Assembly: GCA_014729085.1 (NCBI GenBank)
Contig: WJKM01000009.1
Coordinates: 61,973-125,972, forward strand
Source of the DNA: Candidatus Dojkabacteria bacterium
GTDB lineage: Bacteria; Patescibacteriota; Dojkabacteria; B142; WJKM01
Direction: 5' to 3'
Length of the DNA stretch: 64,000 nt
Position numbers and translations under genes: made by a program. The notes under the pieces were generated by a model. That model saw nothing but the letters and a program-made list of their open reading frames with translations. It was not told the origin of the DNA and searched no databases. Of the stretch, positions 22,530 through 62,153 are shown in pieces. The stretch's first letter is position 1. Each line of letters starts with the position of its first letter.

Positions 22530-22598
22530 GGGGGAAATTTGAGATTCATATGCTCGCTCTCCCAGCGAGTACGTTAGAGACCACTCTGTCATTTGTCC
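22530..22598 (-). pseudogene. Degenerate copy of tRNA-Ser (D-arm plus anticodon arm retained, T-arm decayed), carrying a copy of the upstream promoter region
   Basis: atgacagagtggtctctaacgtactcgctgggagagcgag aligns with the D/anticodon region of the intact tRNA-Ser at 24327-24413. The 5'-flank ccattaatccagattggatatttt aligns with ccattcatttatactggatatttt of the intact gene. Confidence 0.5.
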
Positions 22599-22744
22599 AT
22601 TAATCCAGATTGGATATTTTAATCTCAATTTATTAGATTTAAAATTTGAAGATTGTATTAAAGACTATTTAGCGTTTAGTTAGTTATTCTATACAGATTC
22701 TTTAAAATTTTTCTAAAATATGGGCTGGTTAATATGCCTATATT

Positions 22745-23734
22745 TTATGGTTCTTCTGTCTGTGTACGTTCTTTAATATAATTTTTAACATCTATATTTT
22801 TTACTCTCATTCCTGCTGTCAATGAACAGAAACTATTTTTCCCATACATTGTATTTGAAGCAACTGCTGGACCGAGATATTCACAATTTGGGTTGCATAT
22901 AAATAGACCACCTCCACTGTCACCCTGTTGGAATGCATTTGTAGTGAATGAGTTCTCAAATGTTTCGCAAAGTGAGATATCGCCTTCTAGAAGTTGATCG
23001 TATAACTTTACTGTGGTAGTAACATCATCTAAGTTAGTAACATCATCTGGTAGAGGTGCTAGGCATATAAGTCTATCGTCATCCGGGAGCATATTTTCGG
23101 AACCTGAAAATTGGAGGCAAGTATCATCCGGCAAAGTTATAAATTCTTTTATTTCTTTAGGAGATTTAGATTCATATTCTTCACCTCTGTCTTGATTATG
23201 GATAGCTAGATAGACAAGTTCCCCAGGTTGTAAATTTCCTTCAGATACATCGACGGTTGGTGCATTGGGCATTTCCATTTGCGTAAAAGCTACGTCATAC
23301 CAAATTTTGGACCAGTCGTCATGATGGATTATATGTGTATTGAGAAATGTATTATTCTGAAATTTTACATAATCTTTTGATCTGTATTTTTGCTCATTAC
23401 CTGGACGAGAGTCTACTGCACTACAGTGTGCTGCAGTAATTCCATAGGCTTGGTCTTCCAAACTTTCAGCTATAACTCCCTGGCAGCCATGATAGTATTC
23501 CAAAGGTTCGCCTCTCTGATCTCCGAGTGAAATTGTTGCTTCCCATGGAATTGGCGGATCAGATGATAAAACAGTTTCATCAAATGGAGAATTTAAATCC
23601 CTTGGTGTTGGATCCGGCCTTATTGATTCATCTTCTGTAGACAGCGTTGTAGGTTGATCACATCCGCTTAATAGTAGCATTGTTATTAAACCTATAGGTA
23701 GCCCCAAACGTTTTAAAAAGTTTTCTTGTTCCAT
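22745..23734 (-). CDS. Secreted trypsin-like (S1) serine protease, lipoprotein
   Basis: Lipobox LLSGC. Catalytic His in TAAHC and Ser in GDSGGGLF. Confidence 0.7.
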   Translation of the reverse strand: MEQENFLKRLGLPIGLITMLLLSGCDQPTTLSTEDESIRPDPTPRDLNSPFDETVLSSDPPIPWEATISLGDQRGEPLEYYHGCQGVIAESLEDQAYGITAAHCSAVDSRPGNEQKYRSKDYVKFQNNTFLNTHIIHHDDWSKIWYDVAFTQMEMPNAPTVDVSEGNLQPGELVYLAIHNQDRGEEYESKSPKEIKEFITLPDDTCLQFSGSENMLPDDDRLICLAPLPDDVTNLDDVTTTVKLYDQLLEGDISLCETFENSFTTNAFQQGDSGGGLFICNPNCEYLGPAVASNTMYGKNSFCSLTAGMRVKNIDVKNYIKERTQTEEP

Positions 23735-24299: not shown

Positions 24300-24326
24300 C
24301 CCTAGTAATTTATTGCTAAAGCGAAA

Positions 24327-24413
24327 CGGAGAGAGGGGGATTCGAACCCCCGATGAGCTTCCGCCCATACTCGCTCTCCAAGCGAGCGCGTTAGACCACT
24401 CTGCCATCTCTCC
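24327..24413 (-). tRNA. tRNA-Ser (anticodon GGA), class II with a long variable arm
   Basis: Manual cloverleaf: acceptor GGAGAGA/TCTCTCC, anticodon stem CTCGC/GCGAG with loop TTGGAGA, T-arm GGGGG-TTCGAAT-CCCCC, 87 nt, discriminator G, no encoded CCA. Confidence 0.85.
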
Positions 24414-24775
24414 ATTCATTTATACTGGATATTTTATCAGATAATTAGGAGATTACATAAAATTAAAGTTGAAAACTTTTCTATTTCTCATATTCCTTGG
24501 TAAATAGACATTTGATGTCATTATATATTAATGATAATAAACAGATACGCACAATAGCTATAGATATAGTTCTGGTATTATCCCAGAAGATTATTATGGA
24601 TCATTGAGTTGACACAAGAGTAAGGAGCTATTTAAGAATAACAAGCATAAAATTGTTTTAGATTAAAAATATATACCTATTGAATAGCATGTAGAATGAG
24701 TGATTATTAATTAATATAAAAAGATAGACTAGTAGCATTATCATTCAAAAGGATCCATGTTATACTATTTCCAAC

Positions 24776-28486: not shown

Positions 28487-29680
28487 TTATCCGCATTCTC
28501 CTTGTGCAGCACTTCCGCTCGAATCATATCCAAATCCTGGTCCTGGTGGAGTCTTAGATACTTCAGCATTACATTCTTCAGGTTTTTCTTCAAAACCTGC
28601 ACATATTGTATCTAGTAAACTTTGAGAGTCTCTACCAGATGAAAAGACTTGTCCATTAATTACCAATGTTGGGGAATGGCTAACTCCATATTTTTGATTA
28701 TCATCTGCATGAATATTAAATGGAGGGTAACTGCCCATCCAAGTATTTTCATCATTTAGATTTGCAATTATATTATATTCAGCGTTAGTTGCCTCGTAAC
28801 AACTATCTACAGAGTTTTTGTCAATACTATTAGACGCGATACAACCTTCTGTATCTCCTTTGTCTAGGAAGCATTCCAGATAACCGATAAATTTAGAAGG
28901 CATATTTTTTTGAATACAATACTGCTTTGTTTGCTCGATCAACTCTTTTTCTCCATGCATTGCATAATTAACAAATTTTAATTCAAAGTCAATTTTATCT
29001 CCTAATTTTTTCACCACTGGTATAATTCCCTTTTCTATTTGGGTACCATAAGGACAATGACTCATAACAAAGAGTTCAACCAAAGGCTTTTTTGCTTTGG
29101 GTAAATTAGCAAGCATCTTTTGATAAGCTTCTTCTTCTTTTTTCTTTCGTGCTTCAGCATCTACTAGTACTGAAGCTGGAAAAATTTTCGATCCGTCTTT
29201 GATGATAAAAGATTCGATTTCCTGAGAATCAATTTCTAGTATTACTTTATAATAATCACCATTGTCGGCATCTGTTGTTTCTAGGATTTGGGCATCTTCA
29301 TACCCGCTTGAAATAAAGAATGATAACACCTTATTCTCTGCTTCCTCTTTAGTAAGAGGGGTTTCGCTTGCGGTAGCTTCATGGACAGAAGGAAAAATTG
29401 ACTCTTTGTCTTTGGTAAGGTAGATAGGCATTTCTGTTGTTTCATCTTTAATTGTAACCTTATAGAGCCAGTCGTTTTCTTCGGTAACATCGGTTACCTC
29501 TACACCTTGATATCCAAGTTCTTCATAAAATTTTACAATTAGTTCTTTAATGTCTTTATTTGCATCTGCTTCTGTCTGAACATCATTTGAGGTACTCTTA
29601 TTATTTTTCTTGGGAGTGCATCCAGCAATAAATATAGGAAGAATGATAAGAACAATTATGGGTATATATATTTTTTTCAT
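28487..29680 (-). CDS. Lipoprotein with two PepSY-like repeats and a thioredoxin-fold domain (CPYG motif) plus a C-terminal Cys-rich tail
   Basis: Lipobox IAGC. Tandem repeats of about 50 aa (ELIVKFYEELGYQGVEV.. / KVLSFFISSGYEDAQIL..). VMSHCPYGTQ is a CxxC-like redox motif. Confidence 0.4.
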   Translation of the reverse strand: MKKIYIPIIVLIILPIFIAGCTPKKNNKSTSNDVQTEADANKDIKELIVKFYEELGYQGVEVTDVTEENDWLYKVTIKDETTEMPIYLTKDKESIFPSVHEATASETPLTKEEAENKVLSFFISSGYEDAQILETTDADNGDYYKVILEIDSQEIESFIIKDGSKIFPASVLVDAEARKKKEEEAYQKMLANLPKAKKPLVELFVMSHCPYGTQIEKGIIPVVKKLGDKIDFELKFVNYAMHGEKELIEQTKQYCIQKNMPSKFIGYLECFLDKGDTEGCIASNSIDKNSVDSCYEATNAEYNIIANLNDENTWMGSYPPFNIHADDNQKYGVSHSPTLVINGQVFSSGRDSQSLLDTICAGFEEKPEECNAEVSKTPPGPGFGYDSSGSAAQGECG

Positions 29681-35630: not shown

Positions 35631-36176
35631 TTATTGACATCTTGCATAACAGATCCAAATTTTTCCAACAATATTTTCTTTTGGAATGAAACCTGTATGC
35701 CTGGAATCTTGAGAGTTTTTTCTGTTATCTCCTAAAACAAAATAAGAATCTGGTGGTACAGTTATGGATTGATTCTCTTTAAGAAATTCATCTTCGTTTG
35801 TTTCGACATTTTGATTAAGATAAGCTTCTTCTAAAATTTCGCCATTGATGTATATATTTGAGTTTTTCAGTAGTATCTTATCACCAGGCATGCCAATAAT
35901 TCTGTGTACATATTGAATTTTGGAATCCGTTTTAGATTTGTACACAATTATATCTCCTCTTGATACATAATTTACATTGTTTATACCTTTTAATATAAAA
36001 TGCATAGATCCATCCGATAGCGTTGGAGCCATAGCTTTTCCATTTATTTGTACAGGTTGTAAAAGTAGAATATAGATTATGGGTACTAAAGTAACTCCAC
36101 AAAATATGAGGATTGCAAAAAGTATTAGTACAATTATTGGTAGAGATTTTATTTTACGAAAGAAAAGTTTTTTCAT
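35631..36176 (-). CDS. lepB: Signal peptidase I (bacterial P-type)
   Basis: N-terminal TM, box B KAMAPTL (SMxPTL), box D RGDIIVYK, box E VLGDNRKNSQDSRHTGFI. Confidence 0.8.
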   Translation of the reverse strand: MKKLFFRKIKSLPIIVLILFAILIFCGVTLVPIIYILLLQPVQINGKAMAPTLSDGSMHFILKGINNVNYVSRGDIIVYKSKTDSKIQYVHRIIGMPGDKILLKNSNIYINGEILEEAYLNQNVETNEDEFLKENQSITVPPDSYFVLGDNRKNSQDSRHTGFIPKENIVGKIWICYARCQ

Positions 36177-38840: not shown

Positions 38841-41060
38841 ATGAACTTCATAAAAAATAAAAAATTTAGAAATATTTTTCTTTTAATATTTCTATTCGTT
38901 CTGATAAGTATTGCTGTTATATTACTTTTTGTTTTTGTTAAGTATAAAGATCAAGAAGATAGAAGAAGTTTCCAAGCCGAAAGATATAGTATTGAAATTG
39001 ACGATTCTTCTATTAATCCTTCAATTAAAATAGAACGCGGTGGGACTTCCCTCGAATTTGAATTCATTTCTGAGGAGATTGAAAGTAACTCAGGACAATC
39101 TCAAGTCAAAGGGGTTTCAATCGATAAAGAAAAAATTTCAAAAACAGATATACCGAGTCAAGGTATTACATTTTTCAATATTCATAAAAAAGATAAGAGA
39201 AAATTCAGAAAAAAAATAACAGATTCACTTGAAGTTCTATATACTTTAACTGATACTCAAATTAAAGAAGAGTTCGTTCTGTCCGAACCTAAAGATATAG
39301 ATCATCTAAAGTTCAAAATTAATCTTGAAGGACTTGATGCACGAAAGGGATATGATGGTATTTGGAGGTTTTACAATGAGAACGGAACTGAAACCTTCTA
39401 TATACCAAAGTCATTCATGAAAGATGCAAATGATGTTCATACTGAGAATGTAAGTATTGATATTGTAGATAATATGATGGTAATGAATTTGGATAAAGGA
39501 TGGTTGCTTTCTTCTGAGAGAAAGTATCCTGTACTTATAGACCCAACAATTGTACTTAGTATATTAACCGTTCATTCACATCCACAAACCGGAGATGATT
39601 GGATTGTAGATTTTAAAACTGAAGGAACTGCTGATTTAACTATTACTCCAGATGATCAAGCAACAATAGATGATATTGACTTTCTAACTCTTAGTTGCGG
39701 TAAGGAAGAGAGGACTCCGCAAATACTTGAGAATGATGTTATTTTCTATAAAAATTGGAACTGTGAAGATACGGCCAAAGTTTTTCATTACGTAAACACA
39801 GCTGCTCCACACAGGTTGAAGTTCCAGTTTGGGCAGGAAGTCGATTATGCATATAATTCGCCAAATAGTACTATATATGCATTTTCTGGTTTATCAACTT
39901 CGATACAAGATAGATTTGCTTATGAAAAATATCCAGATTCGTTTACAGGTCCTACGGATACGGGAGTATCGGAAGCTACAGCATCTGCTTACACTAGTTT
40001 AGAGGCTGATGATGGTTCGAGATGGGTGACAGATGGAGCAAGTAATAATGGGGAGATAGATGCTCAGCTTTATAAATTCATTATAGAAGAACAAGAAGCA
40101 AGTATAACGGATCTTAATATTAAGTGGAATGGTTTTGGCGATACTAGCGGAGGAGATACAGAATTATCTATTTGGAATTGGAATTTAAATCAATGGACAC
40201 AACTTGATAGCTATCAATTTAATAATAGTACGGATCTAGATCTTATTGGGTCAATATCAGGGGGCTTTTCTTCAATTGATCCATATGTATCAAGTCAGAA
40301 TGAGGTTATACTTATGGTTCATTCTAAAAAAACATTTGTTTGCGGAGAAGATATATTATATGGTGGCCAGTATTATAATACCGTACAAATAGGTAACCAA
40401 TGTTGGATGGCAGAAAATTTAAATATAACAGATGGAAATGAAGATGGAAATTGTACTTTTACAAGTGACTGTTATATTAGTTCTTCAACTGATACTGATA
40501 ATTGTAGTACGTTTGGAGGTTTGTATTACTGGGATGAAGCAAGGTGCGGTGAAACTGCATGCAATGGTACTGGAAAGACACAACCTGAATGTACAAATCC
40601 TGTTCAAGGAATATGTCCGGATGGATGGCATATCCCTAGTCATTATGAATGGAATGCACTCGAACAGCAAGTATGTTCAGATATTGGTAATACAAATTGT
40701 AACACCGAATTTCCTTATGATGAAACTACCACTAATTACAGAGGCCAAAGTAGCTCGGATGCACATGGGGAGGCCTCTGCATTAGCCGGGGGTTGTAGTT
40801 TATGGAACAATGATGTTTTAGATAACTATGGTTCATGTAATAACGATTTCGGTACTACAGGATTAAATCTTCTTCCTGGTGGTATGTATTCTTTTGGAAG
40901 TTATCATGAGAAAAATAGAGCAGGGTATTATCTTAGTTCAACAGAAAAAGATTCAACATATATTTGGCATAGAATGTTTCATTATGCATACACGCAGACT
41001 TATAGACAACCTGTAAATAAGTCAAATGTCAATTTTTCAATACGATGTATTAAAGACTAA
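38841..41060 (+). CDS. Large secreted/membrane-anchored protein with a C-terminal Fibrobacter-succinogenes-major-paralogous (Fib_succ_major, TIGR02145-like) domain
   Basis: N-terminal TM/signal. The C-terminal roughly 240 aa begin YYNTVQIGNQCWMAENLNI and end NFSIRCIKD, the diagnostic start and end of the Fib_succ_major domain. Many Cys. Confidence 0.6.
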   Translation: MNFIKNKKFRNIFLLIFLFVLISIAVILLFVFVKYKDQEDRRSFQAERYSIEIDDSSINPSIKIERGGTSLEFEFISEEIESNSGQSQVKGVSIDKEKISKTDIPSQGITFFNIHKKDKRKFRKKITDSLEVLYTLTDTQIKEEFVLSEPKDIDHLKFKINLEGLDARKGYDGIWRFYNENGTETFYIPKSFMKDANDVHTENVSIDIVDNMMVMNLDKGWLLSSERKYPVLIDPTIVLSILTVHSHPQTGDDWIVDFKTEGTADLTITPDDQATIDDIDFLTLSCGKEERTPQILENDVIFYKNWNCEDTAKVFHYVNTAAPHRLKFQFGQEVDYAYNSPNSTIYAFSGLSTSIQDRFAYEKYPDSFTGPTDTGVSEATASAYTSLEADDGSRWVTDGASNNGEIDAQLYKFIIEEQEASITDLNIKWNGFGDTSGGDTELSIWNWNLNQWTQLDSYQFNNSTDLDLIGSISGGFSSIDPYVSSQNEVILMVHSKKTFVCGEDILYGGQYYNTVQIGNQCWMAENLNITDGNEDGNCTFTSDCYISSSTDTDNCSTFGGLYYWDEARCGETACNGTGKTQPECTNPVQGICPDGWHIPSHYEWNALEQQVCSDIGNTNCNTEFPYDETTTNYRGQSSSDAHGEASALAGGCSLWNNDVLDNYGSCNNDFGTTGLNLLPGGMYSFGSYHEKNRAGYYLSSTEKDSTYIWHRMFHYAYTQTYRQPVNKSNVNFSIRCIKD

Positions 41061-41074
41061 TTTAATCCAAAAAT

Positions 41075-44000
41075 ATGATATCAAGCATAAAACAAAAGAT
41101 ATTAAACAATATAAAAAAAATAATAAAAATTGTTATTATCCTTTGGATTTCATCAATTGTTCTTCTATTTGTAAATAGGAATTCAGAGGCTAGTTTAAAT
41201 TCTGATTATATTGAGTTAATTGTAATTTTCACCAAATCTAACGGTGAGACATGTTCAAGCGGAACAGATTGTACCTCAGGTTTTTGTATAGATGGAGTGT
41301 GTTGTGATTCGGCATGTAATACTACATGCGAGGCATGCAACCTGAGTGGTACTGAAGGTGTTTGTACTAATATTCCGGATAATCAGGATCCAGATTCGGA
41401 ATGTAGTGCTGAAATATGGTCATCTTGTGATAGTGTATGTGTAAAAAGGGGAGCAGATGGATACTGCGATGGAGCTGGAGCCTGTGATACTAATGATGAT
41501 ACTTCCTATATTCAGACTGCTGGAAAGGTGTGTTCTTCCGGAAACGAAGTAGATCCAAACTCTTCACATTATTGTGATAGAACAATTGAATGTAACGATG
41601 GTATTTGTTCTGCAACTAGATACTATAGAGGTTGCAGCTCAGGTGGTTCTTCTTGTACAGATACTGGACGAATTTCTTATGGTAATTGGAATGCTCCAGA
41701 AAATAGTACTGTTTCAGAGAATAATTATAAGACTGGCACTACCTGTTTGACTAATTTAGATTTTTGTAAATATGGAACCTACCAATGTACAGGTACAGGT
41801 TCTCCTTATTCTTGCCAGCGTTCAAGAGAAGTCTTTAGGTGTGATGGAAGTGGTTCCTGTACATATAACGCAGGAAGTGAAGTTGCAGACATTCCTAGTG
41901 GAAGTGTCTGTACAGGATCAGGGAATATAACTGCTGGAAGTTCGGACTATTATGCATTTTTAGATACTAGCGATCGCTGTTCAGATTCAACTCCGGGAAG
42001 CGGTTTTGGAGATAGAGTATATGATGTCTTTGCATGTGATGGTAATAATGCACAGGGACCTGACGTCGGAGATAGAACAATTGATTGTGCAGATGCATGT
42101 TGTTACGATGAGGGTGCGACAACTATGTGTGTTGCATCAGAAAATTTTAATACTTATGATTGGTATGATTTTGGAGTTGGAGATAGTACAGCTACTGATT
42201 ATTGCAGTATGCAGACAGTATACGATTGTTATAACGACAATGATTGTCAGCCTGGTTATTATTGTTCATCTAATTCTTGTATAAATACTTGTTCCCAAAA
42301 TTCTGATTGTCCAAATGGGTATTTTTGCAGTGAGATAGGTTCCTGTTCACCACAAAAAGTAAGTAGTGAAGCTTGTGATTTTTCAATCACAGAAACAGAC
42401 TCATCAAGCGAAAGTAATGGCGTTTGTAGTTCAGGTTATTGCAGAGATGATTACGACAATACTGAAGACGGTGATGGAAGCTGTGAAAATGGTGAATCTT
42501 GTTGGTGTGCTGATTCAAGTTTTGATTGTACAACTGATGGGATTTCTGTGAATACAGGAGAATTTGCCTCAAATGATTGTTTTGAGGGTGGTTCTGGAAT
42601 AAATCCAGGTTCACGGGCACAGTGTTCAGCAGGTGCATGGCAGTCTGTCACTTGTGGATATAGTACTTATAATTCCTGTAACAATTCCTGCGAAAAAGGA
42701 AGAGACGTTTATCACTGCGATAATACAGATAATACATGTTTTGATAGCGGAGAAGATGATTATAGTACAGTCTCTTTAAGCAAAGTATGTGATAACGGAA
42801 ATGAAGTTAATGCAACAAGTGAGACGTTAGCATGTGATAACAACACTGATTATTTTTGTACTAAAGGAGCCTGTGCCGGATCTTATAGATATTCCGAATG
42901 TAATGGATCTGGTATTTGTGATACAAGTTCAACTAACAATTACGAAGAGTATGGAGTTACTGCTGACGTAGGGTATACACTAACTTCAAATTGTCAAACT
43001 AATGGAACTACTATTTGTGGAACAGGAAGCTGGATTTGTTCTGGAACATGCGGTATTACCCGCGAAGAATATAGATGTGATTCAAGCCAGACATGCTCAG
43101 AATATATAGGAGATGAATCACAACCTTGTGGAATTGGGGAATATTGCAGCTCTGGTGCTTGTGGGACAGGAACATGTAATGAAACTAGAACCTATTGTCC
43201 TGCATCTGGTGATGATAATTATAATGTGGGTGGAGATTTATTTTGCCAAGCAACATGTGATGGAAATTATAACTGTGATTATGCAACAAATTGTATTGAG
43301 GTATGTGGAGATAGTGTTGTTTCTGTTTCCGAGGGATGTGATGACGGAGATACCGAAGATAACGATGGTTGTTCTTCTGCTTGTACTGTAGAAACAGGAT
43401 GGAGTTGCAGTGGAGAACCGAGTGTATGTACAGAGATACACGGAGACGGAGTAATAGCAGGAGCAGAAGAATGCGATGATGGGAATACAGAAGATGGAGA
43501 CGGTTGTACATCAATTGGAAATATAGAAACAGGATGGAGTTGCAGCGGAGAACCAAGTGTATGTACTGAGATACACGGAGACGGAATAATAGTAGGAACA
43601 GAAGAATGTGATGATGGGAATACAGACAACGGAGATGGTTGTACATCAACTGGAAATATAGAAACAGGATGGAGTTGTAGCGGTGAGCCAAGTGTATGTA
43701 CAGAGGATGATACAGATGGTGATGGATTGACTGATAATTATGAGTTACTTATAGGTACTGATCCTAATGTTTATGATAGTTGTGATCAAGCAAGCGATTG
43801 TGAATCCGATGAATTTTGTGCTTCTACTTTACAGGTAGGTGCCTGTCTTTTAAAAAAATCAACGGGTAGTGTCTGTGATTATAACGAAACAGAAACTGAT
43901 TCAGCTGCAGAAAGTCATGCAGTTTGCAATTCGGGAGTTTGTCATGATGATTATGATAATAGTCTAGAAAATGGTAATGGTTTATGTGAAGCAAATGAGG

Positions 44001-45586
44001 AATGTTGGTGTGTTTCTAACCAAAATGAATGTGTTACAGATGGTAACTTAGTAAATAACCAATCATATGCATCCAATAATTGTATTTCAGATGGGTCTGG
44101 AACTACATCTGGACAAAGAGCCCAATGTATAGATGGAGTATGGAGTGGGGCTTATTGCGAATTCGGAGATTGGGATACTTGTAATGGACGTTGCGAAAAA
44201 GGAAGATCGGTTTTCTATTGCGAAGATTCATCAAATTCTTGTTACGAAAGTGGTATAAAGGCCTATTCTTCTTTACAAATACCAAGTAAGGTATGTCAAA
44301 ATGGAAATGAAATAGATGCTAATAACGAAACAATTGCCTGTGATGGCGATACTAATACATTCTGTAATGATGGTGCTTGTGTAGGCTTTATTAGATTTTC
44401 AGAATGTGATACCAGCTCTAATTGTGATAATGAATCTAATACCTATTATGAACAAATAGAAATTACTGCCGATGTAGGACATACTCTTACTTCAAATTGT
44501 TCAACTGCAGGCAATACGATTTGTGATTATGGAAATTGGAGATGTAGTGGGTCTTGTGAACGTGAAAGAGATAAATATAGATGTGATTCAAATCAGCAAT
44601 GCGAAGAAGAAGTTGGAGAGGAAAACGAAAACATTAATGCTAATAGAGTTTGTAAAGATGGTAGAAATGTCGATGCAAACTCTATAGACTTATCTTGCAA
44701 TCAATCAGCAGATTATTTTTGTGATTCCGGTGCGTGTTCAGGTTATATACTGTACCCAGAGTGTGATGGGGATGGTTTTTGTGATACTCTTGCTAAGGAA
44801 TTTTATGAAAAAATAAATATTACTGCAGAAGAGGGATTTGCACTTACTGCTCAATGTAAGCAGCAAGAAAGCTCAACATGTGGAGAAGGTACAACTTTCA
44901 TACAAGATGATTCAATTCCGAGATCTGCGGTTTGCGGAGATGGTATTGTTCAGAATGGAGAAGAGTGTGATGATCATAATGTCATTGCTGGAGATGGATG
45001 TTCACCTGAATGTAGAAATGAGGTTTCTGAAACTGAGGATTCTACTTATGATGGACAGTCTACTGATGATTCCGAGACGAGTAGGAGTCCCGAAATAACA
45101 GCTACGGGAACTATAGTTGTGACAGGAACTTCGATACCTTCTGAGGAGGTTGATAAAAAAGCTGATTCTGATTCAGATCAAATCCCTGATTATTGGGAAA
45201 AACAATATTCATGTATGAATTGGGAACTTATCAATAGTGCTGATGATTCTGATGGTGATGGGTTAAGTAATCTGAAAGAATTTGAAATCAATACAAACCC
45301 CTGCGATAAAGATTCAGATAAAGATGGCATTGAAGATGGTGATGAAGTTAATCAAGGACTTAATCCAAGAATTGCAAATTTGGAAAATATTTCTATTGAA
45401 GATCAGAAAGATATAACACGAACAGATGATGATATACAGGTCTCAGAAGATATTCAGGTTACACGTGAAGAATCTTTTATTGCTAAATTATTTAGTAATA
45501 AAAGTATATTAATCGCTGGTTCATTTTCATTGCTTTTTTTAATTGGAGTTATAATTGCAATCTTTGTAAAAAAGAAGATTACATAG
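41075..45586 (+). CDS. Giant (1503 aa) secreted Cys-rich repeat protein with Myxococcus-type cysteine-rich repeats, thrombospondin-3-like Ca-binding motifs and a C-terminal TM anchor
   Basis: Signal/TM N-terminus. About 12% Cys. Three tandem CGD..V..EGCDDG(N/D)TEDGDGC...ETGWSCSGEPSVCTE repeats (DUF4215/TIGR02232-like) plus a fourth at CGDGIVQNGEECDDHNVIAGDGCSPEC. Also DTDGDGLTDNYE and DSDGDGLSNLKE..DKDSDKDGIEDGDE motifs. It ends LIAGSFSLLFLIGVIIAIFVKKKIT. Confidence 0.7.
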   Translation: MISSIKQKILNNIKKIIKIVIILWISSIVLLFVNRNSEASLNSDYIELIVIFTKSNGETCSSGTDCTSGFCIDGVCCDSACNTTCEACNLSGTEGVCTNIPDNQDPDSECSAEIWSSCDSVCVKRGADGYCDGAGACDTNDDTSYIQTAGKVCSSGNEVDPNSSHYCDRTIECNDGICSATRYYRGCSSGGSSCTDTGRISYGNWNAPENSTVSENNYKTGTTCLTNLDFCKYGTYQCTGTGSPYSCQRSREVFRCDGSGSCTYNAGSEVADIPSGSVCTGSGNITAGSSDYYAFLDTSDRCSDSTPGSGFGDRVYDVFACDGNNAQGPDVGDRTIDCADACCYDEGATTMCVASENFNTYDWYDFGVGDSTATDYCSMQTVYDCYNDNDCQPGYYCSSNSCINTCSQNSDCPNGYFCSEIGSCSPQKVSSEACDFSITETDSSSESNGVCSSGYCRDDYDNTEDGDGSCENGESCWCADSSFDCTTDGISVNTGEFASNDCFEGGSGINPGSRAQCSAGAWQSVTCGYSTYNSCNNSCEKGRDVYHCDNTDNTCFDSGEDDYSTVSLSKVCDNGNEVNATSETLACDNNTDYFCTKGACAGSYRYSECNGSGICDTSSTNNYEEYGVTADVGYTLTSNCQTNGTTICGTGSWICSGTCGITREEYRCDSSQTCSEYIGDESQPCGIGEYCSSGACGTGTCNETRTYCPASGDDNYNVGGDLFCQATCDGNYNCDYATNCIEVCGDSVVSVSEGCDDGDTEDNDGCSSACTVETGWSCSGEPSVCTEIHGDGVIAGAEECDDGNTEDGDGCTSIGNIETGWSCSGEPSVCTEIHGDGIIVGTEECDDGNTDNGDGCTSTGNIETGWSCSGEPSVCTEDDTDGDGLTDNYELLIGTDPNVYDSCDQASDCESDEFCASTLQVGACLLKKSTGSVCDYNETETDSAAESHAVCNSGVCHDDYDNSLENGNGLCEANEECWCVSNQNECVTDGNLVNNQSYASNNCISDGSGTTSGQRAQCIDGVWSGAYCEFGDWDTCNGRCEKGRSVFYCEDSSNSCYESGIKAYSSLQIPSKVCQNGNEIDANNETIACDGDTNTFCNDGACVGFIRFSECDTSSNCDNESNTYYEQIEITADVGHTLTSNCSTAGNTICDYGNWRCSGSCERERDKYRCDSNQQCEEEVGEENENINANRVCKDGRNVDANSIDLSCNQSADYFCDSGACSGYILYPECDGDGFCDTLAKEFYEKINITAEEGFALTAQCKQQESSTCGEGTTFIQDDSIPRSAVCGDGIVQNGEECDDHNVIAGDGCSPECRNEVSETEDSTYDGQSTDDSETSRSPEITATGTIVVTGTSIPSEEVDKKADSDSDQIPDYWEKQYSCMNWELINSADDSDGDGLSNLKEFEINTNPCDKDSDKDGIEDGDEVNQGLNPRIANLENISIEDQKDITRTDDDIQVSEDIQVTREESFIAKLFSNKSILIAGSFSLLFLIGVIIAIFVKKKIT
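43390..43700. repeat. About 2.6 tandem copies of a 120-bp near-identical in-frame coding repeat inside the giant protein gene
   Basis: gaaacaggatggagttgcag(t/c)gga gaacc(g/a)agtgtatgtac(a/t)gagatacacggagacgga recurs with period 120 at about 43390, 43510 and 43630. Confidence 0.75.
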
Positions 45587-45596
45587 AGATATATAG

Positions 45597-45881
45597 TTAA
45601 TTTTTTTTCTTTTCTACAAAATAATAAACCGCCGCTCCTATGATATGGGTAAAAACTATGATCAGTACCCACATTAATTTATCGTTTTCCTTATCATACT
45701 CTCTTTGTATTGCATCAATCAACATTAGAATCCAGAATATGGTACCAAATACGCTAAATACAATTATACTTACCCATATAAGACACCATATAAGAACAAA
45801 AAACATCTGAAATCCACAAATAAAGGGCATTAAAACTAAACCTGCCATATCTCCTCCGGAATTATTAACAAGAAAATGCAT
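45597..45881 (-). CDS. Small membrane protein with a PLD-nuclease N-terminal-like (PLDc_N) domain
   Basis: Two TM helices, then W.L.L.DA....Y......W.L.I.F....G...Y, the PLDc_N pattern. Confidence 0.45.
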   Translation of the reverse strand: MHFLVNNSGGDMAGLVLMPFICGFQMFFVLIWCLIWVSIIVFSVFGTIFWILMLIDAIQREYDKENDKLMWVLIIVFTHIIGAAVYYFVEKKKN

Positions 45882-48954: not shown

Positions 48955-49920
48955 ATGAGCATTTTTAACAATTTATTTACACCACTGAATATTGCTGTCG
49001 TACTTCTAATTGCCATATCAATAGCATTTATAATTCGTTTGATTAAGAAAAAGAAAAAACTTTCTATTTATTTTCATGGTCACGTAAATCACGATATCCT
49101 TGATTTAATAATTAAAAAGTATAATCATATTAATATTTCAGGTGAACAAAGAATTTTAACAGTTATGTTTATTGATATTAAAGGTTTTACAGCTTTGTCT
49201 GAGAATCTATCAAATAAAAAGATTGTTGAGTTATTAAATACATATTTCAGTGATATTTCTAAGATTATTTTTACTCATTATGGTACCGTTGATAAGTATA
49301 TCGGAGATACAGTAATGGCGTTCTGGGGAGCTCCACTTCTTGACAGATATCAGGCTTCGAATGCATTAAAGGCTGCAATTGAGATACAAAACTATTTTCA
49401 ACAAAAAGGCAGGGGTATTAGAATTGGAATAAACACAGGACCGGTTTTGGTCGGGAATATAGGAAATCCGAATATGATGAGTTACACCGCTATTGGAGAT
49501 TCTGTTAATGTGGCTTCCAGACTTGAATCGCTTTGCAAACAATATGGGGTTAATATTTTGTTTTCAAAAAGCACAAAAGAAAAATTGCAAAGTGAGGTTA
49601 AAAGTATAGATAAAGAAGTTTTTTGGAGGGAAATAGATAAGGTAAGAGTCTATGGTAGAAGAGAAGTTACATATATTTATGAGCTTATAGGTTCAAAAGA
49701 AAGAATTTTACCACGTGAGATAAGTGGATATGAATATTTTGAGGATGGTTTAATATGTTATCGAAATGGAAATTGGGAAAAAGCAGAATCATTATTTCGT
49801 AGAGCATCTCGTAGGTTAAATAAGGATAAAGCTTCTAAAACATTTATTAAAAGATGTAAAAAATTTCAAATAAGCCCACCAAAAGGTAAGTGGAATGGTA
49901 CCTTGACATTACTTAAGTAA
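48955..49920 (+). CDS. Membrane-anchored class III adenylate/guanylate cyclase
   Basis: An N-terminal TM helix, then ILTVMFIDIKGFTALSE...YIGDTVMAFWGAP...GINTGPVLVGNIG, the CHD cyclase domain. Confidence 0.75.
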   Translation: MSIFNNLFTPLNIAVVLLIAISIAFIIRLIKKKKKLSIYFHGHVNHDILDLIIKKYNHINISGEQRILTVMFIDIKGFTALSENLSNKKIVELLNTYFSDISKIIFTHYGTVDKYIGDTVMAFWGAPLLDRYQASNALKAAIEIQNYFQQKGRGIRIGINTGPVLVGNIGNPNMMSYTAIGDSVNVASRLESLCKQYGVNILFSKSTKEKLQSEVKSIDKEVFWREIDKVRVYGRREVTYIYELIGSKERILPREISGYEYFEDGLICYRNGNWEKAESLFRRASRRLNKDKASKTFIKRCKKFQISPPKGKWNGTLTLLK

Positions 49921-49923: not shown

Positions 49924-51072
49924 TTAGTTTATAATATCTGTAATCAGACCTTTTGTGCCAAATCCTACATCGTAAAATTTGTAGTGGTAGTTTGCGGCTA
50001 ATTCTTGAAGTAAACTTTTATTTGAATGATAAGTCAACAGCGCACCTGATTTATCCTTGCCTTGTCCTCCTGCTCCAGAGATTTTACATGCACCTCCCCT
50101 AGATCTAATAATAGCAGAAATTTCCTTGACTCTATCAGATACAACACCTAATTTTTCTAATAAGATACCATTAGAGTTAATAAAATCTATATATTTTTTA
50201 GTACTGAATTTATTACTTTCAGATTCATTAATAAATTGTTCTAAGTTTGTTTGAATTGCATCAAATATTTTATTAGTTCTTCTTCTATTGAATGATTTTT
50301 CTTTTTGTACAAAATTTACCAATTCACCTGTCGATTGATCAGCGGATCCGGTATGAATAATGATTGAATTAGAAAGCATGGATTTTAGATCTGGATTTTT
50401 TATTTCTAATTGTTTTATAGAAGGTTTACTTGTTGATTTTTTTGAAAACTGTATCATTTGTCCATAAACTATTATTGCTGGATCTGCTCCGCTAGGATTC
50501 CCGTGTTGAAACTTTTCATATTCCAGTGTCAGATCAAATATTTTTTTATTATTAAAGTCGATTTCTGCAGCTTTAAGCATAGAAGAGATTAAAGAAGCTC
50601 CTAAAGAAGCAGAAAATCCGAAACCTGCCGAAAAAGGTAAATTGGAATTGAAGTTGATATTAAAAGACGGATAATACCCGAGATGTTTATCAATCTCTGT
50701 TAAGGCAATGGCAAAAATGATTTTAAAAAACCCATAATCTTCGTTAACAACTTTAGATAGTGATTGAAAATCCCCTCCACTCAAATAATTATTACGAGCT
50801 TTTTGGGCTTGTTCATATGTTTTGAATATTTCTTGTTGGGAATAAGACATATCTTTCATTTTATAAAGAGGGTTTTTATACTCCAAGAAATTAATATTTC
50901 CATTTTTGCCCGTTATTTGGGCTTCTGCAGAAGAATTTAAATTAATTGTTGTTAGTATCGCATCATACTTAGGATAGACTACTGTATGTTCACCAAATAG
51001 AATTGTTTTTCCCGGTGTAACTGCAAATGCTTTTGACATATTAAAGTAATTTATAATATTGGAAAATATCAA
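49924..51072 (-). CDS. GHMP kinase, probable phosphomevalonate kinase (could instead be a second mevalonate-kinase paralog)
   Basis: GKTILFGEHTVVY, GHMP motif NLPFSAGFGFSASLGASL, C-terminal ISGAGGQG. It is the last gene of the mevalonate operon. Confidence 0.5.
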   Translation of the reverse strand: MIFSNIINYFNMSKAFAVTPGKTILFGEHTVVYPKYDAILTTINLNSSAEAQITGKNGNINFLEYKNPLYKMKDMSYSQQEIFKTYEQAQKARNNYLSGGDFQSLSKVVNEDYGFFKIIFAIALTEIDKHLGYYPSFNINFNSNLPFSAGFGFSASLGASLISSMLKAAEIDFNNKKIFDLTLEYEKFQHGNPSGADPAIIVYGQMIQFSKKSTSKPSIKQLEIKNPDLKSMLSNSIIIHTGSADQSTGELVNFVQKEKSFNRRRTNKIFDAIQTNLEQFINESESNKFSTKKYIDFINSNGILLEKLGVVSDRVKEISAIIRSRGGACKISGAGGQGKDKSGALLTYHSNKSLLQELAANYHYKFYDVGFGTKGLITDIIN

Positions 51073-52551: not shown

Positions 52552-53580
52552 TTAGAATAAATGATTATCGGTTAGATATGCACCATTACCAGGCCTATTA
52601 ATTCTTATATCTTTTACTTCTGGTACAGATTCAAGCTTGTTATTAATCTTTTGAACTGTGTCTGGTTCGCAAAGAATATGGACATCCTGCCCGGTATTAA
52701 CTGTAAAATAAGCTTTTATATTTTCTTGTTTGCGCCATTGCTTTATTAGTTTCATTATCTTCAAACTTTCTGGAGTCCAGTAAATTAATTGAGGAGTGGA
52801 ACTTAACATTATGCAGTGTAGTTCCATTGCTTCCAATTCGATGAATTCCCCAAGCTTCTGAAAGTTCTTTTCCTTTATTATTTTCTTACATAATTGATTT
52901 TTTTGTTTCATATATTTAAGCCTAGTCTCAAAAAACGGACTTGTTTGAGCATAAGTATGTCCAATAGATGTTGGTACAAGTTTTTTGTCTTTACTTACAA
53001 CCGCAATAATGTCAATTAATTCCCAGTGATTTTTAGGGAATAATTGTTTTACATATGATGATTCGCTTGTATCTCCGTCAACCCATTCGCAAAAACCTCC
53101 TAAAATAGATCTGCTAGAAGAACCTGATCCTTGGCGTGACAAAATTGTTAACTCTTTATTCTCTATATTAAGATTAGAAGCTGCAGTAGCAGCTTTTGTA
53201 AGTGCAGCGAAACCAGAAGCAGAAGAAGATAATCCGGTACTTGTAGGAAAGTTGTTTTCTGACACAACTTTTGCAAATAATTTAATTCTAGCTCTTTTTC
53301 GAATTCTATCTAAATGCTTGGAAACACGTTTTGCTTCTTTATCAATTTTTTGTCCATCAATAATGATGTCGTCGCTATCATATTTATCTGAGAATTCGAC
53401 TGTTGTGGTTGTTAATAGATTGTCAAGGGTCATTGAAATACTCCCATTAGATGGAAGTCTTAATTTTTCATCTTTTCGGCCCCAATATTTTGTAAATGCA
53501 ATATTTGAACCAGCAATTGCTGTAGATTTCATATCAAATATGTAATATATTAATTTATTAAGTTTAATGTTCTCAGACAC
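52552..53580 (-). CDS. mvaD: Diphosphomevalonate decarboxylase (MVD/PMD family)
   Basis: AGSNIAFTKYWGRKDEKLRLPSNGSISMTLD and the GHMP-like SGSSARS... blocks. Confidence 0.8.
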   Translation of the reverse strand: MSENIKLNKLIYYIFDMKSTAIAGSNIAFTKYWGRKDEKLRLPSNGSISMTLDNLLTTTTVEFSDKYDSDDIIIDGQKIDKEAKRVSKHLDRIRKRARIKLFAKVVSENNFPTSTGLSSSASGFAALTKAATAASNLNIENKELTILSRQGSGSSSRSILGGFCEWVDGDTSESSYVKQLFPKNHWELIDIIAVVSKDKKLVPTSIGHTYAQTSPFFETRLKYMKQKNQLCKKIIKEKNFQKLGEFIELEAMELHCIMLSSTPQLIYWTPESLKIMKLIKQWRKQENIKAYFTVNTGQDVHILCEPDTVQKINNKLESVPEVKDIRINRPGNGAYLTDNHLF

Positions 53581-54146: not shown

Positions 54147-54794
54147 ATGCCAAAAGAAAACTTACAAAATATTGAAAACAAAGAACCTTCTAGTGAAGAA
54201 ATTGAATATGTTGCTGTAATAAATAATGAAGGCGAAGTAGAATTCGAAGCGAGAGATAAAGCATCAAATCCTGAAAATGATCTAAAAAGGTTAATTATAG
54301 GCTTGTTAGGATTTACAAGGAATGAAGAAGGAGAAGATTGTATGATACTTCAAAGACGTTCCAGATCCAAAAAGGAATATCCTGATCATTTAACATTTGC
54401 AGCATCTGGACATATAAATCCTGAAGACTTGGTTGAAGATGAAGTTGATTTTATAGGTGCTATGGCTAGAGAACTAAATGAGGAGATGGGTATTACTACT
54501 ATACCAAGTTTAGCATTAATTTCATCTTTTGAAAGTAGAGAACAAAAAGAAGGATACCCTGATATAAGGAAAGAAATGATGTTAGGGGTTACTCAAATTG
54601 AGCTTTCTCAATTAGAAAATTTTACTACGACAGATGAAGTTAGTAGTTATGAATTAATTCCTTGGGAAAAAGTATTAACTCAGGTCATGACTGATCCAGA
54701 AGATAGGGAAGAGAAGTATAAATTTACAATTCCATTTGAGCAGTCAATTCTTCATTTAGTTGACACAGCAGATGCCTTAATGCGAGAACCTTAA
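54147..54794 (+). CDS. Nudix hydrolase (IDI-1-like fold, acidic N-terminus)
   Basis: Nudix box GHINPEDLVEDEVDFIGAMARELNEEMGI. It runs convergent to and overlaps the mevalonate kinase gene by 4 nt. Confidence 0.55.
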   Translation: MPKENLQNIENKEPSSEEIEYVAVINNEGEVEFEARDKASNPENDLKRLIIGLLGFTRNEEGEDCMILQRRSRSKKEYPDHLTFAASGHINPEDLVEDEVDFIGAMARELNEEMGITTIPSLALISSFESREQKEGYPDIRKEMMLGVTQIELSQLENFTTTDEVSSYELIPWEKVLTQVMTDPEDREEKYKFTIPFEQSILHLVDTADALMREP

Positions 54795-55762
54795 TTTTCT
54801 AATCTGACTCCTTCCACATTAGTCTTAATTTTAATTGGTTCACCTCCTGCGTTTAAGATGGCGTTTTCTATTTGATTCATCTTTGATTTCGGAGCAACAG
54901 CTATCATATTGTCTCCTATACCAGCACCGGAGAGTTTAGCACCAAAAGCTCCAGAATTACGCGCTGCATATACTAGTTTTGAAAGTATTAAACTATTTAC
55001 ACCTAGAGATTCTAAATAACCTTGATTGAAATTCATCAGATCACCAAATAATTTCAAATCATAGTCCAATAGGGCTTTTTTACCTTTCTGTACTAAATAT
55101 GAAATTGAATCAAATATAGAGTTTACTACATTCGGATATTTTTCTAATTTTTCTGCTACTTTTTCTACTATATCTGCGGTATGAGCTTTAGTTTTTGTGT
55201 AACCTATTATTAAAGGCAAGGATTCTACATCAATTTTTTTAATTATTTCTCCTCTTTTAGAGTAAAATAAAGTTTTTCCATATACTGCAGCTGCTATATC
55301 AAATCCAGAGCTTAGTCCTCGAATATCAAAGTGAGTTTTATAAGCCAAATTAAAAACTTGTCTAGGTGTAATTTTAATCCCAAATATCTCGGCCAAAGCT
55401 TTGATTGTACATACTGCAGAAGCAGAAGAGGATCCAAAACCCAATTTTGAAGAGAATTCTGAATTTGTTGAGATCGAAATTCCAGTATCAATTTTATATT
55501 CATCACTAAAGTTTTTAACCGCAGTTTCAATATACAATGCACCTTTGGGAATATCATTCTGCAAAAGTTTATTAAAAGGTTTTTTGTAATTTTTTACTTT
55601 AACATCCGGTGCGTTTAAGATTAAAATATCATCTTTAATAATGTGCATATTAAGATACAGTCTTTGTTCAACGGCTGTAACGATACATGGATGCTTGTGA
55701 ACAACTGAGTGTTCTCCCAATAACATTAATTTCCCAGGAGCAGATACTTTAATTTTTTTCAT
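54791..55762 (-). CDS. mvk: Mevalonate kinase
   Basis: SAPGKLMLLGEHSVV, GHMP motif KLGFGSSSASAV, C-terminal LSGAGIGDNMIA. Confidence 0.75.
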   Translation of the reverse strand: MKKIKVSAPGKLMLLGEHSVVHKHPCIVTAVEQRLYLNMHIIKDDILILNAPDVKVKNYKKPFNKLLQNDIPKGALYIETAVKNFSDEYKIDTGISISTNSEFSSKLGFGSSSASAVCTIKALAEIFGIKITPRQVFNLAYKTHFDIRGLSSGFDIAAAVYGKTLFYSKRGEIIKKIDVESLPLIIGYTKTKAHTADIVEKVAEKLEKYPNVVNSIFDSISYLVQKGKKALLDYDLKLFGDLMNFNQGYLESLGVNSLILSKLVYAARNSGAFGAKLSGAGIGDNMIAVAPKSKMNQIENAILNAGGEPIKIKTNVEGVRLEN

Positions 55763-61010: not shown

Positions 61011-62153
61011 TTATATTTTTTCAAATATGTTTACAATACAGGTAGCTCCGCTACCTCCTATATTATGTGTTAGGCCATATTTCATATCTTTTTGAACTTG
61101 TCGTTTACCTGCTTTTCCGGTAAGTTGTTTAACAATTTCAACTGCTTGCTTAACTCCAGTGGCACCTACAGGATGTCCTGCTGCTTTAAGCCCTCCGGAC
61201 AGGTTTGTTGGAATTGAGCCATCCATTTGAGTATCTCCAGATTCCACAAATTGACCCCCTTTACCTTTCTCAACAAACCCAAGATCTTCATAAGCTAAAA
61301 TTTCAGCTATTGAAAAGCAGTCATGTACCTCCATAATATCAATATCTTTATTTTTAAGCTTTGATTGTTTAAATGCTCTTTCTTTAGCTTTGATTGTAGC
61401 TTCTAGAATTGTGATATCTTTTCGATCATGTAAGGCAAGGGAATCTTGAGCATGTCCAGATGCTATTAGTCTAATCTCAGATTTTTTCTTTGATGACATT
61501 ACAATTGCAGCCGCTCCATCTGAAATAGGAGAGGAATCGAAAAGTTTTAAAGGATCAGCAACAACCGGAGATCTTAAAACCTGTTCAACAGTAATCTCTT
61601 TTTGGAAATGTGCGTCTGGATTAAGAGTACCGTGTTTATGATTTTTTACAGAGCACATTGCTAGCTGTTCATGACTTGTTCCATATCTATTCATATGCTC
61701 TCTTGCGATCATTGCATAAAGTGATGGGAAAGTCACACCATAAAAAGCTTCCCATTCCTCATCGCTTGCGCCTGATAAACCTTCAGTTGCATTTTTAGTG
61801 TTTACATCGGTCATTTTTTCAACTCCTAGAATCAGGGCATTTTCTGAAGATCCACTAAGTAAATCAAGGAAACCAGCTCTAATTGCTGCAGAACCTGAGG
61901 CACAAGCTGCTTCAATATGAAACGCTGGACAATCCAGACCTAATTCTGTTGCAAATAAAGCACCTAGGTGGTCTTGTCCTGTGTAATGGGATGCTGCCAT
62001 ATTTGCAACATATAACACATCAATATCCTGAAGATTTATTTTAGAGTTTTGAACGGCATTAACTGCAGCCTCAACTCCAAGATCTCTAAAGTCTCGTTTC
62101 CAAAGTTCCCCAAATTTGGTTGTGTAGCCTCCGTTAACATATACTTGTTTCAT
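61011..62153 (-). CDS. Thiolase (acetyl-CoA C-acetyltransferase, archaeal/SCP-x-like type)
   Basis: The active-site Cys region EAACASGSAAIRAG, the C-terminal NIGGSGATCIVNI and overall 380-aa thiolase colinearity. Confidence 0.8.
   Translation of the reverse strand: MKQVYVNGGYTTKFGELWKRDFRDLGVEAAVNAVQNSKINLQDIDVLYVANMAASHYTGQDHLGALFATELGLDCPAFHIEAACASGSAAIRAGFLDLLSGSSENALILGVEKMTDVNTKNATEGLSGASDEEWEAFYGVTFPSLYAMIAREHMNRYGTSHEQLAMCSVKNHKHGTLNPDAHFQKEITVEQVLRSPVVADPLKLFDSSPISDGAAAIVMSSKKKSEIRLIASGHAQDSLALHDRKDITILEATIKAKERAFKQSKLKNKDIDIMEVHDCFSIAEILAYEDLGFVEKGKGGQFVESGDTQMDGSIPTNLSGGLKAAGHPVGATGVKQAVEIVKQLTGKAGKRQVQKDMKYGLTHNIGGSGATCIVNIFEKI

Follow-up and report, generated by a model that had tools for sequence, protein, structure and literature searches.

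How Candidate Phyla Radiation (CPR) bacteria and DPANN archaea recognize and grip their hosts is largely unknown, and concrete adhesin candidates are few. The 64,000-nucleotide stretch of a Candidatus Dojkabacteria contig analysed here (the window; coordinates are positions within it unless another locus is named) raises this question through two adjacent genes, which we call P1 and P2: do they encode an attachment device, and do the two products work together? On balance we lean, with modest confidence, towards a two-component cell-surface adhesin of a CPR bacterium whose two proteins most likely act together, and host attachment by the pair is plausible. The kind of feature is already known, since CPR genomes are expected to encode surface proteins that resemble adhesins. 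What the P1/P2 locus supplies is a defined, conserved two-gene adhesin candidate, with a lectin-like head on P1 of a type that retroelements hypermutate in sister lineages and a putative P2 stalk made from families absent from Pfam and PDB. As far as sequence can tell, the domains, topology, native codon usage and CPR identity of the locus, the conservation of the gene pair as a cassette and the combination of parts of both proteins in one archaeal polypeptide (L007) all point to this reading.

P1 and P2 are co-oriented neighbours of 739 and 1503 aa separated by 14 nt, and their open reading frames (ORFs) agree in this with an earlier note on the same DNA. Both proteins have NCBI entries: P1 as MBD3362636.1 (100% identity; annotated as hypothetical protein GF362_02860 of Candidatus Dojkabacteria) and P2, likewise identical, as MBD3362637.1, named "DUF4215 domain-containing protein". 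The contig, 198,413 bp long and part of a metagenome-assembled genome (MAG) of this CPR lineage, also encodes a neighbouring histidyl-tRNA synthetase (HisRS) and signal peptidase I (LepB, 35631-36176). The parts of P1 are listed below with the evidence for each (HMM, hidden Markov model; AF2, AlphaFold2 model; pLDDT, predicted local distance difference test; DGR, diversity-generating retroelement).

38841..41060, plus strand: P1 gene, 739 aa (ORF).
38862..38954, plus strand: N-terminal signal anchor, aa 8-38, with a basic N-tail, a 23-residue hydrophobic core and no AXA site (hydropathy; AF2 helix at aa 7-45).
38961..39194, plus strand: acidic linker, aa 41-118, predicted to be disordered (pLDDT <50).
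39198..39866, plus strand: beta-rich scaffold, aa 120-342 (AF2, block-mean pLDDT 64-93; homologs).
39555-39866, plus strand: conserved core within the scaffold, aa 239-342 (alignment).
40086..40331, plus strand: beta-sandwich with a weak GH114_assoc match, aa 416-497 (Pfam, AF2).
40365..41057, plus strand: FISUMP (Fib_succ_major) domain, aa 509-739, of the CLec2-type lectin fold class (HMM; fold class from PMC5758913).
40878..41057, plus strand: stretch equivalent to the DGR variable region of homologs, aa 680-739, static here (alignment; GC 0.31; codons ending in C 3/60).

The Fib_succ_major domain that the earlier note had placed at the end of P1 was recovered by two models. PF09603 (FISUMP) matched along its full length (profile positions 1-187 of 187, E = 1.1e-27, 97.9 bits against a cutoff of 33.9), and TIGR02145 matched with E = 4.7e-25 (89.3 bits, cutoff 41.65). 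The AF2 model carries a low-confidence insert inside this domain (~aa 624-694) and is also of lower confidence in the middle region between scaffold and FISUMP. P1 had further been called giant, Cys-rich and secreted, and these labels had to be dropped or changed. It has 739 residues and 16 cysteines (2.2%), 14 of which lie in the C-terminal third with the FISUMP domain, and its 23-residue N-terminal hydrophobic helix lacks an AXA site, indicating that it serves as an uncleaved signal anchor, so that P1 would not be freely secreted. P1 also has no lipobox, the lipoprotein signal that is frequent in the family, where it is typical rather than defining (PMC5758913).

The scaffold links P1 to a wider set of surface proteins. 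Its core (aa 239-342) recurs at 50-70% identity in 15 otherwise different surface proteins, including one from Nealsonbacteria (CPR), and a 20-sequence alignment shows invariant columns at S246, P248, W254, V256, F258, G262, C286, C308, H316 and H324, among others. PF27237 (AF_1625_C) is annotated, in precomputed form, on the exact P1 sequence (P0121) and on the closer homologs, in whose middle region it lies. For this analysis we provisionally defined a CPR "P1-type" scaffold family by the core at aa 239-342 together with PF27237, and P1 possesses both. The closer homologs terminate in FISUMP or in Lcl_C/DUF1566. P1 has no PDB relative by sequence, and the Foldseek matches of its model to S-layer folds (including the S-layer protein SbsC), pilins and Ig-like adhesins were all weak. 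As a separate observation, the sole IMG/VR contig with a P1-core homolog is L098 (IMGVR_UViG_3300005253_000068, 2758-3870; 59% identity over aa 215-341), which could belong to a phage with the P1 scaffold or be a CPR contig wrongly filed among the viruses.

P2 is built differently, as a long series of modules between an N-terminus predicted to be cleaved and a C-terminal transmembrane (TM) anchor. In the list, a slash marks the probable cleavage site.

41075..45586, plus strand: P2 gene, 1503 aa (ORF).
41075..41191, plus strand: predicted signal peptide, aa 1-39, with a probable signal peptidase I site SEA/S (alignment of homologs).
41192..41599, plus strand: conserved N-terminal head, aa 40-175, starting "LNSDYIEL..." and continuing into a Cys motif (alignment).
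41402..42064, plus strand: N-terminal B-type Cys-rich modules, aa 110-330 (self-comparison, model).
42194..42670, plus strand: module A copy 1, aa 374-532, with the signature GVCSSGYCRDDYD...CWC (alignment).
42653..43174, plus strand: module B copy 1 (12 Cys, ~120 aa) plus cap, aa 527-744, the interval covering aa 527-700 (self-comparison).
43307..43711, plus strand: three tandem DUF4215/myxo_disulf_rpt repeats, aa 745-879 (HMM).
43709..43768, plus strand: bacterial TSP3 Ca-binding-type repeat 1, aa 879-898 (HMM).
43775..44899, plus strand: second duplicated block, with module A copy 2 (aa 901-1030) followed by B modules at aa 1028-1149 and 1150-1275 (self-comparison).
44930..45025, plus strand: fourth DUF4215/myxo repeat, aa 1286-1317 (HMM).
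45026..45499, plus strand: acidic low-Cys linker, aa 1318-1475 (composition).
45245-45307, plus strand: TSP3 repeat 2, aa ~1391-1411, inside the acidic linker (HMM).
45500..45583, plus strand: C-terminal TM helix, aa 1476-1498, and KKKIT cytoplasmic tail (hydropathy).

HMM searches of both proteins upheld all domain identifications of the earlier note as well as its membrane-anchor prediction. It had counted three to four Myxococcus Cys-rich repeats in P2; four stretches were found both with DUF4215 (PF13948; E = 1.5e-19, 70.5 bits, cutoff 27) and with TIGR02232 (E = 2.2e-36, 123.4 bits, cutoff 20.8), and the three in tandem are encoded by 135-nt DNA repeats of 67-70% identity (43292-43696). 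The aspartate-rich TSP3-type motifs are likewise there, as two stretches matching TSP3_bac (PF18884) above cutoff (E = 4.1e-11, 43 bits against 25). These share the D-x-D-x-D-G-type pattern of thrombospondin type-3 and bacterial TSP3 repeats but comprise just two short copies at module junctions, where they would bind Ca2+. The internal duplication, first put at ~250 aa (aa 430-690 versus 930-1190), is real and could be refined to ~295 aa (aa 404-694 versus 901-1196, 46-55% identity) with every Cys conserved. The TM helix with a KKK tail was confirmed at aa ~1476-1498, followed by KKKIT. Sorting of P2 by a sortase or exosortase was considered and rejected: the residues before the TM helix (…ESFIAKLFSNKS) carry no LPXTG, MYXO-CTERM, PEP-CTERM or PGF-CTERM motif, and NCBIfam sorting-signal models gave no match to P2 at E<=0.1. 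At the other end, the SEA/S site has counterparts in the cassette homologs described below (VFA/G, SASA/G and KA/S), and the head that follows contains 10 Cys in aa 55-112 (the "8-Cys motif"). The P2 model is confident over aa 48-297, where block-mean pLDDT is mostly 75-95 and short beta-hairpins are formed.

Cysteine is what sets P2 apart in the window. The protein has 135 (9.0%), short of the "hundreds" first announced, and the remaining 44 window proteins together have 162. The spacing is also not EGF-like, as had been thought: segment-wise Pfam searches of P2 found no EGF-family match even at E<=10, and module B (12 Cys, ~120 aa) has a spacing of its own, C3C8C5-6C16C14C7C4C8C5C24C7C, that is fixed across four copies. 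We also rejected an identity with Dickkopf, Stig1, WAP, MopE or EGF-like domains, for which segment-wise Pfam at E<=10 returned noise only. Cys-rich modules span ~1,200 aa of P2, ~1,100 aa of the protein match no Pfam family, and no PDB relative was found by sequence or profile search. The ectodomain is strongly acidic (D+E 265 versus K+R 61).

Do these cysteines serve mainly to bind or sequester metal, their thiolates coordinating Cu, Zn or Fe as in metallothionein or MopE? A Cys content of 9% would fit such a role, some distant matches are annotated as MopE-related or with PF11617, and the organism is probably anaerobic, which makes disulfides less expected. We nevertheless regard it as very improbable, because P2 itself matches neither MopE nor any other metal-binding family and because its invariant, fixed-spacing cysteines lie in confidently modelled beta-hairpin modules, an arrangement typical of disulfide knots. 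P2 is also predicted to be extracytoplasmic, where CPR have oxidative folding of the MdbA/VKOR type: they encode a conserved extracytoplasmic MdbA-like oxidoreductase, often beside VKOR (bioRxiv 10.1101/335083).

Are the two genes a unit beyond this genome? Of eight contexts of P1 homologs examined besides the window, three (L001/L002, L003 and L014/L015) have a P2-type head encoded by the gene that follows; the P1 homologs there are the closest ones and have the full architecture. The second gene product is Cys-rich (8-11.5% Cys) and secreted, and its N-terminus is 43-52% identical to P2 aa ~5-171 (43% in L001, 51-52% in L003 and L014), including the AXA site and the "LN[ST]DY[IV]EL" start. 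In the other cassette loci the lectin-like domain is found on the second protein instead of, or besides, the first. Thus the upstream P1-like protein of L001 ends in Lcl_C, and its downstream protein, of 467 aa and with no TM helix, joins a P2-type head to a FISUMP domain 55% identical to that of P1. The conserved parts are therefore a lectin-class domain along with the P1 scaffold and the P2 head, and the lectin head is mobile between genes. Judged from these alignments, the P1 gene and the P2-head gene form a conserved cassette in which the lectin-like domain changes places from one member to the other. The P2 of the window has grown to 1503 aa and gained an anchor of its own.

DGR hypermutation of a lectin-like head is a hallmark of ligand-binding surface proteins, and some relatives of P1 show it at their C-terminus. 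FISUMP (Fib_succ_major) and DUF1566 variable regions make up the CLec2 C-type-lectin class of DGR targets, of which the surface protein LdtA is an example (PMC5758913), and cellular DGR targets are generally read as cell-cell or particle-binding proteins (PMC8144416). Two more distant members of the P1 family, P0134 and P0129, are verified DGR targets, directly followed by bAvd and RVT_1 genes. The full cassettes of target, template repeat (TR), bAvd and RVT_1 lie at L013 3984-7549 and L016 5250-8942, both in uncultured low-GC bacteria. The pair formed by variable region (VR) and TR measures 148 nt in L013, with 18 of 22 mismatches at template adenines, and 184 nt in L016, with 31 of 33; these pairs were the positive controls for the same kind of repeat analysis in the window. 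Both VRs are locally GC-rich (0.51-0.57 versus 0.33-0.36 for their loci). P1 aa 680-739 aligns to the VR and to the TR-encoded peptide of P0129 (…LWS.T…AW.R…GFSxRCxxD).

The window itself has none of this machinery. The search covered 64 kb of the 198-kb contig, the remaining 134 kb lying outside it, and within this span the 3' region of P1 has no TR (the best match, 36/60, is at chance level). No window ORF has a YxDD motif, neither RVT_1 nor bAvd occurs among the window proteins scanned, and the sole RVT_3 match is a 143-aa RNase H-type protein. Base composition at the VR-equivalent of P1 also differs from that of the verified VRs:

GC: 0.31 in the P1 VR-equivalent; 0.57 (L016) and 0.51 (L013) in the verified VRs.
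Codons ending in C: 3/60 in the P1 VR-equivalent; 29/60 in the verified VR of L016.
Codons ending in A: 20/60 in the P1 VR-equivalent; 1/60 in the verified VR of L016.

With no TR, reverse transcriptase or Avd in 64 kb and no A-depletion footprint, we rejected P1 as a DGR target at this locus; it is best described as a static member of a family that is hypermutated elsewhere. One could still suppose that P1 is a present or recent DGR-diversified receptor, for environment or antigen sensing or as a phage decoy, with the DGR acting in trans and P2 an unrelated neighbour. Such a view can draw on P0134 and P0129 as bona fide targets within the P1 family, on the VR scaffold retained in P1 and on the part of the contig beyond the 64 kb inspected, but the missing TR-like copy, YxDD ORF and bAvd, the lack of a mutagenesis footprint and the conserved order of P1 and P2-head genes make it quite improbable. 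P1 resembles CLec2-headed DGR targets (DUF1566/Lcl_C, DUF823, Fib_succ_major; Legionella LdtA) in being surface-anchored with a lectin-fold domain at its extreme C-terminus. It departs from them in lacking the DGR components and footprint, in its N-terminal TM helix as an anchor in place of a lipobox, in its scaffold (core aa 239-342, AF_1625_C), found here mainly in CPR, and in its Cys-rich partner gene.

What, then, are the relatives of P2? A search with the whole sequence gave 452 matches, each covering at most 21% of P2 and most sharing only the N-terminal Cys motif, in proteins of Polyangiaceae/Myxococcales type. P2 resembles Myxococcota Cys-rich repeat proteins (TIGR02232/PF13948) in its four repeats above cutoff, and Polyangiaceae/Myxococcales proteins in the motif C..SG.C.DGVCC…C..C, which is abundant there. 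Unlike in those proteins, the repeats and the motif amount to only ~15% of P2, modules A and B were not found in the myxobacterial matches, the C-terminus is a plain TM helix with no MYXO-CTERM-type signal, and the host is a CPR bacterium of 31% GC. The P2-head Cys motif is widespread, with at least 557 metagenome loci and GC >0.55 in 74 of the best 80. None of these at least 557 loci had a P1-like gene in the metagenome scan with the P2-head alignment; the scan was captured by the generic Cys motif and is therefore uninformative on the cassette.

Modules A and B lead elsewhere. A word-indexed homology search with the duplicated module alone gave no match, and an exhaustive HMMER search of 1.84 billion representative proteins with a two-copy A+B profile gave 44 (E<=1e-3), about six of which include module A. 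The top match, P0156 (4610 aa), is 40% identical to P2 over aa 101-658. Module A, a family that we define provisionally, is ~160 aa long, occurs twice in P2 and has no Pfam or PDB match. Its 16 invariant columns comprise a pattern of 9 Cys together with D-x-Y-D and G-x-W, and its signature GVCSSGYCRDDYD…DG.C…CWC is near-invariant in a 12-sequence alignment. A scan of species-representative genomes with two peptide patterns, able to detect close relatives only, found six confirmed carriers, all six archaeal and mostly DPANN: Woesearchaeota, Aenigmatarchaeota, Nanohaloarchaea, Micrarchaeia, an "uncultured archaeon" and a bin labelled Methanosarcinales. Their carrier proteins are giant Cys-rich ORFs of 1184 to >6787 aa with 39-53% identity to module A. 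One archaeal ORF, L007 (1743 aa), joins a P1-core homolog to P2 module A in a single polypeptide; its P1-core match, at ~28% identity, keeps most invariant residues and lies directly after the signal peptide. As an observation in its own right, L006 (Aenigmatarchaeota MAG JAFGCI010000002.1, 2-20362) is one ORF of >6787 aa with 6.6% Cys that runs off both ends, holds three module-A-like segments and is an exceptionally large archaeal gene.

P2 is thus like the giant Cys-rich DPANN ORFs (Woesearchaeota, 4101 aa, L005/P0157; Aenigmatarchaeota L006; Nanohaloarchaea; Micrarchaeia) in module A, in B-type modules, in its Cys content with an N-terminal signal or anchor, and in belonging to an ultra-small, host-dependent lineage. 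It differs in being bacterial, 3 to >4.5 times shorter and equipped with DUF4215, TSP3 and a C-terminal anchor. Giant DPANN surface proteins have been proposed as host-interaction devices (PMC10266531). The nanohaloarchaeal giant "SPEARE" proteins of that work are an analogy only for the module A carriers, and P2 has no detected ATPase or enzymatic domain. The occurrence of module A in giant archaeal proteins hints that ultra-small symbionts of both domains share a pool of surface modules.

Is the locus perhaps foreign or an artefact? The idea of a repeat chimera, a pseudogene, a phage tail-fibre cassette or a recent horizontal insertion could appeal to the GC of the region (0.36-0.39), which is above that of its flanks; phages often carry FISUMP/DGR targets, and a P1-core homolog sits on an IMG/VR contig. 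The window is AT-rich at ~31% GC, as the earlier note had it, but GC at third codon positions (GC3) is 0.214 in P1 and 0.186 in P2 against 0.218 ± 0.029 for the other window genes (n=44). Synonymous codon choice is genome-like and the excess is confined to codon position 2 (0.49 in P2), which reflects amino-acid composition and indicates that P1 and P2 are native, with no recent insertion. The locus has no PHROG match and is flanked on both sides by housekeeping genes, and we rejected a recent horizontal or phage origin. There is also no sign of an assembly chimera, the possibility that the earlier note itself had raised: the internal repeats have diverged in protein (47% identity for the duplication) as in DNA (67-70% for the tandem units), a 4.5-kb frame stays open in a 31% GC genome, and the NCBI products are identical to ours, P2 with the same 1503 aa. 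This explanation is scarcely credible and already largely refuted.

The main rival to an adhesin is a structural role in the cell's own envelope or matrix, in which P1 and P2 would be adjacent components, such as S-layer-associated spacers, a wall-spanning scaffold or biofilm matrix, and FISUMP would bind the bacterium's own wall polysaccharide. P2 is long, repetitive, acidic and disulfide-rich with Ca-binding TSP3 motifs, as such a part might be. The window has monoderm-type envelope genes (LytR-CpsA-Psr, an SLH-domain carboxypeptidase, LepB and a MraY-like GT4), two of which, the SLH-domain and LytR-CpsA-Psr proteins, fit this alternative, as do the weak structural matches of the P1 model to SbsC and pilins and the absence of direct binding evidence. 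We think it unlikely for three reasons: DGR hypermutation of the equivalent head in two relatives favours a variable external ligand over a constant self-polymer, the modules are common to giant ORFs of host-dependent DPANN, and lectin-domain swapping suits a binding device better than a lattice.

Several points weigh against the adhesin itself. Direct evidence for surface display, binding, a ligand or a host is lacking, and the physical association of P1 with P2 is one that we infer. The cassette is limited to three of the eight other contexts, those of the closer homologs. The cleavage of the P2 signal peptide is a call from visual inspection and alignment. The 64-kb window contains no gene for MdbA, VKOR or a sortase, and promoter and terminator scans of the locus gave results at chance level, leaving the 14-nt gap as the argument for co-transcription of P1 and P2. 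P0128, a candidate "Rosetta-stone" fusion of P1 and P2, was rejected: it has the P1 scaffold and, where the lectin head would sit, a domain with the generic Cys motif only, and it was down-weighted as fusion evidence accordingly. Of the earlier note's suggestion of host or cell-cell attachment, the background has firmed up, through the CPR genome, the conserved cassette, the DGR homologs and the module shared with DPANN; adhesion as such stays an interpretation.

If P1 and P2 are a two-component adhesin, they might work as follows. Both would be exported by Sec, and LepB would cleave P2 after Ala39. The 135 cysteines of P2 would form disulfides through an MdbA/VKOR-type system typical of CPR, giving a rigid, Ca2+-stabilised and very acidic stalk that could project its head past the wall or S-layer. 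The lectin-like head of P1, in this genome apparently fixed and not hypermutated, would bind a glycan or protein of another cell, either host or partner, and P1 and P2 would cooperate or physically associate. Separately, the gene at 28487-29680 (minus strand) encodes a 397-aa predicted lipoprotein (lipobox …FIAGC) with a weak thioredoxin-fold match and CPYG replacing CxxC; conceivably this is a redox protein outside the cytoplasm with a bearing on P2 folding.

A bolder proposal, which we hold to be doubtful, is that P1/P2 represents, on the bacterial side, a modular attachment apparatus with blocks (P1 core, modules A and B) that are exchanged between episymbiotic CPR and DPANN, with P1 and P2 in one complex and module A as a new host-surface- or Ca2+-binding fold. 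A more distant parallel is the diatom adhesive-trail protein Ca5255, which has 12 DUF4215 repeats and was identified proteomically (bioRxiv 10.1101/2023.03.06.531300). Like it, P2 is predicted to be extracellular, is Cys-rich and contains DUF4215; unlike this eukaryotic protein, P2 has no further module in common with it, so that the parallel supports adhesion by association only.

A limited literature search found no description of a P1/P2-head cassette with a lectin head moving between genes, of P1 as belonging to a family with DGR targets among its members, of the Cys-rich families A and B (which have no Pfam, PDB or fold match), or of a module A confined, outside this bacterium, to giant archaeal ORFs among genome-resolved carriers. 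The locus also adds two new domain families that call for definition, and it suggests clear constructs for binding and structural work, namely module A and the heads of P1 (FISUMP) and P2.

Directly downstream of P2, at 45597..45881 on the minus strand, lies the small PLDc_N (PF13396) gene named in the earlier note. Its identity holds (E = 5.6e-9, 36.3 bits, cutoff 23.3), but it is convergent with P2 and therefore outside the P1/P2 transcription unit. The exact sequence of its 94-aa ORF, read from the first ATG, is absent from the protein collection, unlike those of its neighbours; NCBI may annotate the gene with another start or leave it unannotated. An adenylate/guanylate cyclase catalytic-domain protein, a rare signalling gene for a reduced genome, is encoded ~3.4 kb downstream of the cassette (48955-49920, plus strand).

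Elsewhere in the window, a glycogen/starch cluster (652-10610, plus strand) comprises a GT4/GT5 glycogen-synthase-like gene, GH57, the debranching enzyme GDE and two GH15-like genes. It is interrupted at 3287-4708 by the SLH-domain M14 carboxypeptidase, which points to an envelope of the S-layer or secondary-cell-wall-polymer type. The mevalonate route is uncommon in bacteria, and the window holds a near-complete pathway on the minus strand (16076-18424, 49924-51072, 52552-53580, 54791-55762 and 61011-62153), with genes for HMG-CoA (3-hydroxy-3-methylglutaryl-CoA) reductase, an FMN-dependent dehydrogenase that is possibly a type-2 isopentenyl diphosphate (IPP) isomerase, two GHMP kinases, diphosphomevalonate decarboxylase and thiolase. 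Finally, a 44-nt direct repeat of 82% identity (22578-22621 and 24393-24436), the second copy of which overlaps the 5' end of tRNA-Ser(GGA) (24326-24414, minus strand), brackets an unannotated 329-aa ORF (22745-23734) that is the highest-GC gene nearby (0.378) and has no Pfam match. The repeat pair could mark a tRNA-flanked islet or be a tRNA remnant.

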